A stretch of 64,000 nucleotides of DNA from Candidatus Bilamarchaeaceae archaeon (GTDB lineage Archaea > Micrarchaeota > Micrarchaeia > Anstonellales > Bilamarchaeaceae): positions 66,792 to 130,791 of the forward strand of contig JAVZJR010000002.1 in assembly GCA_038870635.1 (NCBI GenBank), read 5' to 3'. Positions within the stretch are counted from its first letter, which is position 1, and every line of letters begins with the position of its first letter. Shown here piece after piece: positions 10,734-50,057 of the stretch. The notes under the pieces are model-generated. The model saw nothing but the letters and a program-made list of their open reading frames with translations, made no database searches and was not told the DNA's origin. Made by a program: the position numbers and the translations under genes.

Positions 10734-10797
10734 ATGATGACCAAGGTGATCGCTGAGAGCCATCTCATGGTTCGGTGATGATTGACGTGCGGTCTGA
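10734..10797 (+). ncRNA. C/D-box sRNA (2'-O-methylation guide), candidate 1
   Basis: C box ATGATGA 10734-10740. 12-nt guide CCAAGGTGATCG 10741-10752. D' box CTGA 10753-10756. 18-nt spacer with small hairpin (AGCCAT/ATGGTT). C' box GTGATGA 10775-10781. 12-nt guide TTGACGTGCGGT 10782-10793. D box CTGA 10794-10797. It sits in a GC-richer intergenic patch, with a TATA-like ATTTATTAAT at 10701-10710 about 25 nt upstream. Confidence 0.75.
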
Positions 10798-15844: not shown

Positions 15845-16303
15845 ATGAAAATTAAATTGCTCTTTCTTATTGGATTGCTGCTCGTAGACGTTTTATTTGC
15901 TGGATGTGCCTATGATGGATATTCAACTGCATGTAAAGCTTGTAAATTCAGCGATAATGGGAAAATTGACCAAGCATGTATGAAAGATTTGAAGGAAAGA
16001 AGCCTGATTTGTATAAGCGGTAAATACCCTATAATGAGTGCAAAATATTCATTGGGTCAATGTCCTGGCGTTGACGCCTGTACCTCGCAATTGTCTGCGT
16101 GTATATCTAAAAGTTCAACAGGTAATGATGAAAAAGATTGCAAAAGTGGTGTGGTTGCTGACTGCTATTACGAAGCTGATGAGTGTATACACAAAGTTGC
16201 ATTAGAGTGCGGCGATCAGCCTGCGAGTTCATCTTGTGCGCTTCCCGTAATATTAATGACAGTTGTTTTATGCTTAGGTCTATACTTTGGTATTACAAGA
16301 TAA
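15845..16303 (+). CDS. Small secreted Cys-rich protein with C-terminal Cys-TM-basic tail
   Basis: Signal/lipobox-like MKIKLLFLIGLLLVDVLFAGC. Many Cys. Tail SSSCALPVILMTVVLCLGLYFGITR. Confidence 0.6.
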   Translation: MKIKLLFLIGLLLVDVLFAGCAYDGYSTACKACKFSDNGKIDQACMKDLKERSLICISGKYPIMSAKYSLGQCPGVDACTSQLSACISKSSTGNDEKDCKSGVVADCYYEADECIHKVALECGDQPASSSCALPVILMTVVLCLGLYFGITR

Positions 16304-48248: not shown

Positions 48249-48905
48249 ATGCAATTCTTTATTGAAGATATTTCTACGATTTCATTTTTAGATTGGGCAG
48301 CATTGCTTATTTTTATTATATGTATCATTTTATCAATATATCTTAGAGATAGGGCTCGTAAGATGGGCCGCATGACAGGAAAGAAAATTCGTTCGGTATA
48401 CCGTAGAAGTTGGGTAAAAGAAATGGTTGCACAAAATAGTTCAAAGATTCTAACTGATGTTGTAAGAAACCAGATTATGGTATCTACTGCCCTTTTGTCC
48501 GCCCTCGTTATTTCTTTTGGTTTTGTAATCTCTCTTTCAAACCTTCTTGGTTTATATGGGTCTTTATTGCTGATGATTAAAATTGCTTTAGTCTTAATTT
48601 TAATTACCTACGCTTTTTTTATGATTTTGCTTGAAACACGCACTCTTGTTTATGTGCCGGTAGCTTTTAACGTCGATCCTGTTTTAATAAAAAAATATGA
48701 AAAAATGGAAAAAGAGGATTATGTTGCAAAACTTTTGCATGAATCTTTCGATCATTTCTCAAACGCCATCAGAGCAATTTTTTTTGCAATTGCCGTAATC
48801 GCATGGTTGTATAATACATACTTTTTTATTTTCATTGTTTTAGCCTTTACTTTAGTTATGGTTAGAGAGGATTATGGTGAGCGCAGCGAGATTACACTTT
48901 TTTAG
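48249..48905 (+). CDS. DUF599-like integral membrane protein
   Basis: 218 aa. RRSWVKEMV....SKILTDVVRNQIMVSTALLS resembles the DUF599 pattern as I recall it. Confidence 0.5.
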   Translation: MQFFIEDISTISFLDWAALLIFIICIILSIYLRDRARKMGRMTGKKIRSVYRRSWVKEMVAQNSSKILTDVVRNQIMVSTALLSALVISFGFVISLSNLLGLYGSLLLMIKIALVLILITYAFFMILLETRTLVYVPVAFNVDPVLIKKYEKMEKEDYVAKLLHESFDHFSNAIRAIFFAIAVIAWLYNTYFFIFIVLAFTLVMVREDYGERSEITLF

Positions 48906-48907
48906 TA

Positions 48908-48965
48908 TCAGCACTCAAGATCTTCTTCATAGAGCAGAGCCCTCAGACTGTCGAACATTCATCAC
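48908..48965 (-). ncRNA. C/D-box sRNA (2'-O-methylation guide), candidate 2
   Basis: Minus strand reads as follows. C box GTGATGA (48965-48959). 12-nt guide ATGTTCGACAGT (48958-48947). D' box CTGA (48946-48943). 12-nt spacer. C' box ATGAAGA (48930-48924, degenerate). 12-nt guide AGATCTTGAGTG (48923-48912). D box CTGA (48911-48908). The 58-nt core sits in an intergenic gap. Confidence 0.75.
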
Positions 48966-49016
48966 ATCATTATTGTGGTAAGCAAACATTTTAACGCTTT
49001 TCTGAGAATGTTTTAC

Positions 49017-50057
49017 ATGAAAGAAGGAATGCTTTGGAAAAATACAAGTGGTAAGAACATTCTTTGTTATCTATGCTATCGTTTATGTAATATTAAACCA
49101 AACGAAATTGGTTTTTGCAGAGTAAGAAAGAACATAGATGGTAAACTTTACTCTCTTGTTTACGGTAAGGCTATAGCCGCTAATGTTGACCCAATTGAGA
49201 AAAAGCCATTTTATCATTTTATGCCCGGCGCTAATGTTTTTTCTATTGCTACTGTTGGCTGTAATTTTAGATGCAAATATTGCCAAAATTGGGAGATATC
49301 CCAAGTTGCAAGCGGAAAAATAGAAGGAGAAAATCTACCACCAGAACAAATAAGAAAAATATGTGCTCTGCACAATTTGCCCGGCTGCTCCTACACGTAT
49401 ACCGAGCCTACGGTGTTTATGGAATACGCTCTTGATACTGCAAAATTGTTGCGTGGAGATGGAAGGTTTAATGTTTTTGTAACAAATGGTTATATGACAA
49501 TGGCTGCAATAAGAGAAATGGACAAGTACATAGATGCTTCTCGTATAGATTTGAAAGGATTTGATGATAGGATTTACGCTGATGTTTCAGGTGGTGTCAA
49601 ATTGGAGTATGTCTTGCAGAATATAAAGGAACTTTATAAGAGACAGCACATCGAGATAATAACACTTCTTGTGCCAGGTTATAATACTGATGATGATAAC
49701 ATAAGACAGCTATCTCAATGGGTTTATGATCTTTCACCAGAAATACCACTTCATTTTATTGGTTTTTATCCATCTTACAAAATGATGGATACGCCGCCGA
49801 CCTCTCTTGAAACACTTATACGAGCAAGAAAAATCGCATTAGATGTAGGTTTACATTATGTTTATACAGGTAACAGACAGGATACAGAGACAGAAAGTAG
49901 CTATTGCCCTCATTGCAATACAATGGTAATAAAACGTTGGGGTTTTGAGGTTTTAGAGAACAAGCTTATGCCTGGTGCAAGATGTCCAGAATGCGGAAAA
50001 AAACTTAATTTTGTATTGGATATAGAAGAATATTGGAAAAAAAGAAAAGAAAAATAA
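49017..50057 (+). CDS. Radical SAM enzyme of the AmmeMemoRadiSam / pyruvate-formate-lyase-activase-like type
   Basis: CNFRCKYCQNWEISQ cluster motif preceded by C.LC...C.....GFC.VR.N..GKLY.LVYG...A.NVDPIEKKPF.HF.PG. C-terminal CPHC..(x)..CPECG. The start is taken at ATG 49017. Confidence 0.8.
   Translation: MKEGMLWKNTSGKNILCYLCYRLCNIKPNEIGFCRVRKNIDGKLYSLVYGKAIAANVDPIEKKPFYHFMPGANVFSIATVGCNFRCKYCQNWEISQVASGKIEGENLPPEQIRKICALHNLPGCSYTYTEPTVFMEYALDTAKLLRGDGRFNVFVTNGYMTMAAIREMDKYIDASRIDLKGFDDRIYADVSGGVKLEYVLQNIKELYKRQHIEIITLLVPGYNTDDDNIRQLSQWVYDLSPEIPLHFIGFYPSYKMMDTPPTSLETLIRARKIALDVGLHYVYTGNRQDTETESSYCPHCNTMVIKRWGFEVLENKLMPGARCPECGKKLNFVLDIEEYWKKRKEK

Follow-up and report, generated by a model that had tools for sequence, protein, structure and literature searches.

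A predicted box C/D sRNA gene of Micrarchaeota with a D guide complementary to the anticodon arm of tRNA-Leu(CAA)

The window analysed here, a single stretch of DNA of 64,000 nucleotides, contains two plus-strand genes, coding for a DUF599 protein and a radical-SAM protein, and most of the gap between them is occupied by a small element that lies on the opposite strand (Table 1). Read on the minus strand from 48965 to 48908, this element has the form GTGATGA-12-CTGA-12-ATGAAGA-12-CTGA, which amounts to a core of 58 nt. A previous reading of the window made from the letters alone, hereafter the sequence-only reading, had proposed this box string, the exact 12-nt guide spacing and the target complements that follow from the D' and D guides; the string and spacing are borne out letter for letter and the complements are correct. 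Specifically, the element incorporates the features that define an archaeal box C/D sRNA: 1) a RUGAUGA C box near the 5' end; 2) a CUGA D box at the 3' end; 3) internal D' and C' boxes; and, 4) a spacing of exactly 12 nt both from C to D' and from C' to D. The C' box, AUGAAGA, is a departure from the consensus, and the window copy shows no obvious terminal stem around its C and D boxes.

Table 1. Position and supporting evidence of the sRNA element, its parts and its neighbours in the window (guides, boxes and spacer are listed in the direction of the minus strand).
Feature	Position	Strand	Basis or comment
DUF599 gene	48249..48905	+	Pfam; stop codon 3 nt from the sRNA D box (opposite strand)
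Predicted box C/D sRNA, core of 58 nt	48908..48965	-	Box sets, 21 parsed homologues, sub-threshold Rfam C/D matches
C box GUGAUGA (DNA GTGATGA)	48965-48959	-	RTGATGA in homologues, TTGATGA once
D' guide ATGTTCGACAGT (DNA) / AUGUUCGACAGU	48958-48947	-	Predicted target 23S rRNA CUGUCGAACA
D' box CUGA	48946-48943	-	Sequence and 21 homologues
D'-C' spacer GGGCTCTGCTCT, 4-bp hairpin (GGGC/GCUC)	48942-48931	-	Homologue comparison
C' box AUGAAGA (mostly AUGAUGA in relatives)	48930-48924	-	Sequence, homologues and phylum pattern search
D guide AGATCTTGAGTG (DNA) / AGAUCUUGAGUG	48923-48912	-	Predicted target tRNA-Leu(CAA) anticodon arm, nt 31-41, with N+5 = C34
D box CUGA	48911-48908	-	Sequence, homologues and phylum pattern search
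TATA-like TTAAAAT/ATTTTAA	48988-48994	either	Sequence and upstream regions of homologues
AmmeMemoRadiSam radical-SAM gene, corrected start	49017..50057	+	Pfam, TIGR04337, N-terminus conservation

The radical-SAM protein is an AmmeMemoRadiSam enzyme, matching TIGR04337 with 326 bits in an alignment that begins at residue 6. Its N-terminus, MKEGMLWK, begins at the ATG at 49017 and is found as MKE(A/G)xLWK in relatives, several of which have in-frame stops just upstream of this ATG. The conserved N-terminus and the upstream stops indicate that the gene starts at ATG 49017 and not at GTG 48975, and the suggestion of the sequence-only reading that 48975 is too far upstream is supported by both, as well as by the point at which the TIGR04337 alignment begins. 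The same reading had noted a TATA-like TTAAAAT at 48990-48997; the element exists, but its position is 48988-48994, that is 2-3 nt away. The sequence ATTTTAA is quasi-palindromic, and its centre is equally far, 26 nt, from the first base of the C box (minus strand) and from ATG 49017 (plus strand); the same layout is found in the syntenic relatives G001 (L074) and G003 (L075). One possibility, which we put forward tentatively, is that 48988-48994 acts as a shared bidirectional TATA element for the sRNA and for a leaderless radical-SAM mRNA; if this is the case, one TBP site would drive both a guide for wobble methylation and a radical-SAM enzyme. A scan for bacterial-type promoters and terminators found nothing, as expected for an archaeon.

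The genome that contains the window comprises 859 kb in 8 contigs with 35% G+C, and is ~90% complete; the closest relatives of its radical-SAM protein all come from 'Candidatus Micrarchaeota' MAGs. Genes for fibrillarin (277 bits), Nop5 (207 bits) and L7Ae (99 bits) are present, and a C/D RNP can therefore be assembled by the organism. When the pattern RTGATGA-N10-14-CTGA-N3-20-NTGANGA-N10-14-CTGA was run on the whole genome it gave three matches, every one of them with 12/12 spacing, compared with none in 30 genomes simulated from it with a first-order Markov model and an analytic expectation of ~0.0015 matches per genome, which argues that the box set in the window is not a chance event. A looser scan revealed no additional sets. 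Thus, the impression of the sequence-only reading that there are no further box sets is true for the window, while the genome holds one more copy, on another contig.

The other set in the window, at 10734-10797 (+), is the first C/D sRNA candidate of the sequence-only reading. Its D guide TTGACGTGCGGT matches 16S rRNA ACCGCCCGTCAA at 11 of 12 positions, with one mismatch at N+6, and places E. coli C1402, in the decoding centre, at N+5, the base opposite the fifth guide nucleotide. The third set of the genome, at C1:385378-385426 (+), reads ATGATGA-12-CTGA-TTG-GTGATGA-12-CTGA, and its D' guide CGTGAACAACCT is complementary to the A loop of 23S rRNA, with E. coli U2552, the universally methylated U, at N+5. 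It seems that all three guide RNAs in this small genome are directed at universally modified sites.

A search of Rfam gave no family at gathering score. Below threshold, seven C/D-box families (six archaeal and one yeast) matched the element over its full length, on the sRNA strand only and at the same coordinates. Specifically, the boxes and spacing of sR5 (RF01304), sR2 (RF01139), snoPyro_CD (RF00095) and others align full-length with the window element, with 11-17 bits for the archaeal families against gathering scores of 37-50 bits. The best score, 16.7 bits against a threshold of 40, does not qualify it as a member of sR5, sR2, snoPyro_CD, sR33, sR23 or sR1. These scores fall far under the gathering thresholds because the guides differ, and the element lies outside every curated Rfam family.

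Using BLAST to compare the sRNA locus with 60 relatives, we obtained near-full-length matches within the genus and, in many other families of the order, a 23-nt match spanning C', the D guide and D. Altogether 21 homologues could be parsed to one plan, which runs from the C box through a D' guide of 10-14 nt, a D'-like box, a spacer and C' to a 12-nt D guide, NNATCTTGAGNN, and CTGA. The D'-C' spacer forms a hairpin in 16 of the 21, and since the sequence of the hairpin differs among genomes this points to selection at the level of RNA; in the other five the spacer is 3-5 nt long. Upstream of the C box, at a distance of ~22-32 nt, every homologue copy has a TATA-like box rich in A/T, suggesting that the sRNA has its own promoter.

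To describe conservation at the level of the phylum we sampled 401 genomes with the pattern TGA-N5-ATCTTGAG-NN-CTGA, which represents the module of C', D guide and D. The module was found in 278 of these genomes and in 96 of the 155 genera of the phylum, nearly always as a single copy, and a reversed-pattern control gave no matches. The homologues are conserved strand-specifically at non-syntenic sites: synteny with the radical-SAM gene is seen only in the two closest relatives, G001 and G003, and is absent at 17 other loci, and no consistent ORF was found downstream of the sRNA among 11 relatives checked. The sequence-only reading had named comparative conservation as one check of its assignment, and boxes, spacing and architecture are indeed kept in the 21 homologues and the 278 of 401 genomes. 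Its identification of the element as a C/D-box sRNA is supported, as all features of the class that can be judged from sequence are present and conservation extends across the phylum. Our limited literature search for C/D sRNAs in Micrarchaeota found nothing.

Some homologues show further elaboration. One genome of the order has two C'/D-guide/D modules 155 nt apart (G119:C22:16122-16143 and 16277-16298), perhaps through tandem duplication of the sRNA. In G002, G015, G057 and G019 (loci L006, L010, L013 and L028) the final 12 nt of the sRNA (CTTGAGTNCTGA) are repeated one or two times at a distance of 60-85 nt downstream, and each of these repeats directly follows a GC-rich hairpin; the window copy is without such trailers.

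The D' guide ATGTTCGACAGT forms 10 contiguous pairs with 23S rRNA at local positions 859-868, and N+5 is local U862, which is aligned to E. coli U789. We take U789 to sit in the helix 35a region of 23S rRNA. Six genomes of the genus share the core of this guide, GTTCGACAG/A, which is conserved within the genus only, and in the five further genomes of the genus the D' guide makes 9-11 pairs with the 23S rRNA of its own genome. In G002, G005 and G006, where the rRNA reads AACG and not AACA, guide nt 11 is C and not T, a compensatory change from T:A to C:G. The target of the D' guide is probably 23S rRNA, at the equivalent of E. coli U789, but this target is less certain than the tRNA-Leu(CAA) target of the D guide, and it rests mainly on conservation in one genus and on a single compensatory change because the match is only 10 bp long with unpaired ends. 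An 11/12 match to the D' guide is also found inside a protein-coding region.

It could instead be that the element is a real C/D sRNA with a tRNA-Leu D guide, but that its D' guide is an orphan, or recognises some other target, the match to 23S rRNA being coincidental or a folding-chaperone contact only. The shortness of the match would be compatible with this, the chance probability of a 10-bp run in 4.5 kb of rRNA being ~0.013 per guide, as would the unrelated D' guides of other families and the report that in tRNA-targeting sRNAs of Pyrobaculum one guide is often without a target (PMC7994747). However, the core is retained in six genomes of the genus, the guide tracks the A-to-G change in the rRNA, and the site falls in a region for which helices 35 and 35a have been named hotspots of archaeal methylation (PMC7994747), and we consider an orphan D' guide to be doubtful.

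A different D' guide, AAUGCAAUACC, is present in the sRNA of other genera of the family (G015, G028, G020 and G024; L021, L022, L025 and L030). It is complementary to 16S rRNA GGUAUUGCAU, a target that we confirmed in G020 and G028, and it indicates that the D' guide changes between lineages while the D guide is fixed. Insertions in rRNA were also observed in the genus of the window: G006 and G005 (L068/L069) have ~45 nt inserted in 23S rRNA immediately 5' of the D' target site, and G005 (L166) has an insertion in 16S rRNA near local position 1055.

In contrast to the D' guide, the D guide AGAUCUUGAGU is near-invariant, and its G5 is invariant. The sequence of the genome that complements it best belongs to an unannotated gene, C1:172065-172205(-), located directly upstream of tRNA-Pro. 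This is a gene for tRNA-Leu(CAA) with two introns, one of 27 nt in the D loop and one of ~30 nt after nt 37, and it was missed by ARAGORN whether intron mode was on or off. Once the introns had been removed by hand, with relatives as a guide, ARAGORN called the spliced sequence as an 84-nt tRNA-Leu(CAA) with a normal cloverleaf. The homologous gene of G001 apparently has three introns. The D guide forms 11 contiguous Watson-Crick pairs with ACUCAAGAUCU, nt 31-41 of the spliced tRNA, and the wobble base C34 is opposite guide nt 5 (N+5). We gathered the tRNA-Leu(CAA) genes of 18 further genomes that carry the sRNA, giving 19 with the genome of the window, and in 19/19 the D guide of each genome makes 9-12 contiguous pairs with the spliced anticodon arm of its own tRNA-Leu(CAA). 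With tRNA-Leu(UAA), the D guide would make 10 pairs and have a G-U at N+5. The D guide is of the type defined for sR47, being antisense to the tRNA-Leu(CAA) anticodon loop and having C34 opposite nt 5 (PMC3413156). A search for rRNA and tRNA targets had been suggested by the sequence-only reading, and it yields 11 bp to spliced tRNA-Leu(CAA) for the D guide and 10 bp to 23S rRNA for the D' guide; what that reading had named as evidence against itself, an element with neither a plausible target nor conservation, is contradicted on both counts.

As the tRNA-Leu(CAA) gene contains introns, the D guide might act on the pre-tRNA before splicing, as in the tRNA-Trp paradigm. In G003, G035 and G057 the 5'-most guide nucleotides pair with letters of the intron and not with exon 2, and on the basis of these three terminal covariations we at first favoured the pre-tRNA as the conserved substrate. 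This was abandoned when five more genomes (G001, G011, G021, G032 and G039) were found to give only 7 contiguous pairs with the unspliced RNA, against 10-11 with the spliced, and these five argue that the conserved target is the spliced sequence. In the genome of the window itself the difference is between 10 pairs unspliced and 11 spliced. Action on the precursor is thus unlikely. Moreover, since the guide pairs fully only with spliced tRNA in at least five genomes, Cm34 would follow splicing, which is the reverse of the order in tRNA-Trp; that C/D-guided Cm34 formation takes place after intron removal is, separately from the shared TATA element, a possibility that we likewise advance with caution.

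We also considered whether the true partner of the D guide is 16S rRNA at local positions 1055-1066 (GACUAAAGAUCU), where 10 of 12 positions pair with the guide. This site is fairly conserved, and it is only ~25 nt from the 16S GGUAUUGCAU that is targeted in the families with D' guide AAUGCAAUACC. However, in 11/11 genomes guide nt 5 faces A or G, and never C, although G5 of the guide is invariant; an insertion runs through the site in G005 and there are additional mismatches in G038; and the match to the tRNA is longer and present in 19/19 genomes. With a constant mismatch at N+5 and a site that does not covary with the guide, we rejected the 16S site as the D target and regard it as highly improbable. 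A reading of the box set as no more than a chance motif, or a decayed one, within an intergenic promoter region, from which no functional RNA is made, would agree with there being no Rfam match at threshold, but is scarcely credible given that 0/30 simulated genomes contain such a set, that conservation is phylum-wide and strand-specific at non-syntenic sites against a control of 0, and that the spacer hairpins covary.

We propose, with a probability of about 0.8, that the element is a gene, transcribed independently, for a box C/D sRNA of Micrarchaeota (DPANN), whose D guide is predicted to direct the formation of Cm34 in tRNA-Leu(CAA) and whose D' guide is predicted to act on the U789 equivalent of 23S rRNA. 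The anatomy of the element, its conservation, the complementarity and covariation of guides and targets, and the genes for the C/D proteins can be read directly in the genomes. From these we infer transcription, assembly of the RNP and the methylations themselves, following the established model for C/D RNPs. In this mechanism L7Ae would bind the C/D and C'/D' kink motifs, and Nop5 and fibrillarin would then be recruited. The 12 nt upstream of box D would pair with nt 31-41 of spliced tRNA-Leu(CAA), and fibrillarin would 2'-O-methylate the base opposite the fifth guide nucleotide, converting the wobble C34 to Cm34, while the 12 nt upstream of box D' may pair with the helix 35a region of 23S rRNA and lead to methylation of the E. 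coli U789 equivalent. Judging by the distribution of the two guides, the function of the D guide appears to be ancient and fixed across the phylum, and the D' guide appears to be a swappable module that differs between families.

With this, a DPANN genome gains an unannotated RNA gene to which a function can be assigned, and the start of a neighbouring gene is corrected. Of only three C/D guides that can be recognised in this reduced archaeon, one is kept for the wobble base of tRNA-Leu(CAA), and conservation of this guide across the whole phylum argues for strong selection on Cm34 of this tRNA. The sRNA also illustrates cleanly how guides evolve as modules, with the D guide frozen and the D' guide exchanged between families for different sites in rRNA. 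The current understanding of C/D RNPs is unchanged by the finding, which is an ordinary addition to a well-known class; it is useful for annotation, and bears modestly on how guides evolve in reduced genomes.

The product expected of the D guide, Nm34 on tRNA-Leu(CAA), is made in bacteria by TrmL and in eukaryotes by Trm7/FTSJ1, protein-only wobble 2'-O-methyltransferases that act without a guide RNA. In Pyrococcus and Haloferax, wobble C/D guides include sRNAs for tRNA-Met and tRNA-Leu(UAA) and sR50 of the tRNA-Trp intron, each of them serving one tRNA species (PMC7994747). The tRNA-Trp guide is part of its own target's intron and works on the pre-tRNA, whereas the window sRNA is a separate gene with conserved pairing to the spliced sequence. 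In Pyrococcus abyssi, the guide upstream of box D of sR47 methylates C34 of tRNA-Leu(CAA), as demonstrated in vitro with a reconstituted RNP (PMC3413156), and C/D guides for this C34 have also been predicted in Pyrococcus (PMC7994747, PMC7668247). In both the window sRNA and sR47 the box-D guide is complementary to the tRNA-Leu(CAA) anticodon loop and places C34 at the fifth position, and the cores of their targets are nearly identical (...AGACUCAAGAUCC... in P. abyssi and ...AGACUCAAGAUCU... here). They differ in lineage, sR47 belonging to Thermococcales and the window sRNA to the DPANN Micrarchaeota, and, unlike sR47, the window sRNA has a target tRNA gene with two introns and a second guide that matches 23S rRNA. 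The boxes, together with a guide whose sequence is forced by its target, leave little else to compare between the two. On the likeness of guide and target, the window sRNA is predicted to be the functional counterpart in Micrarchaeota of Pyrococcus sR47, to which a genus-specific 23S guide has been joined.
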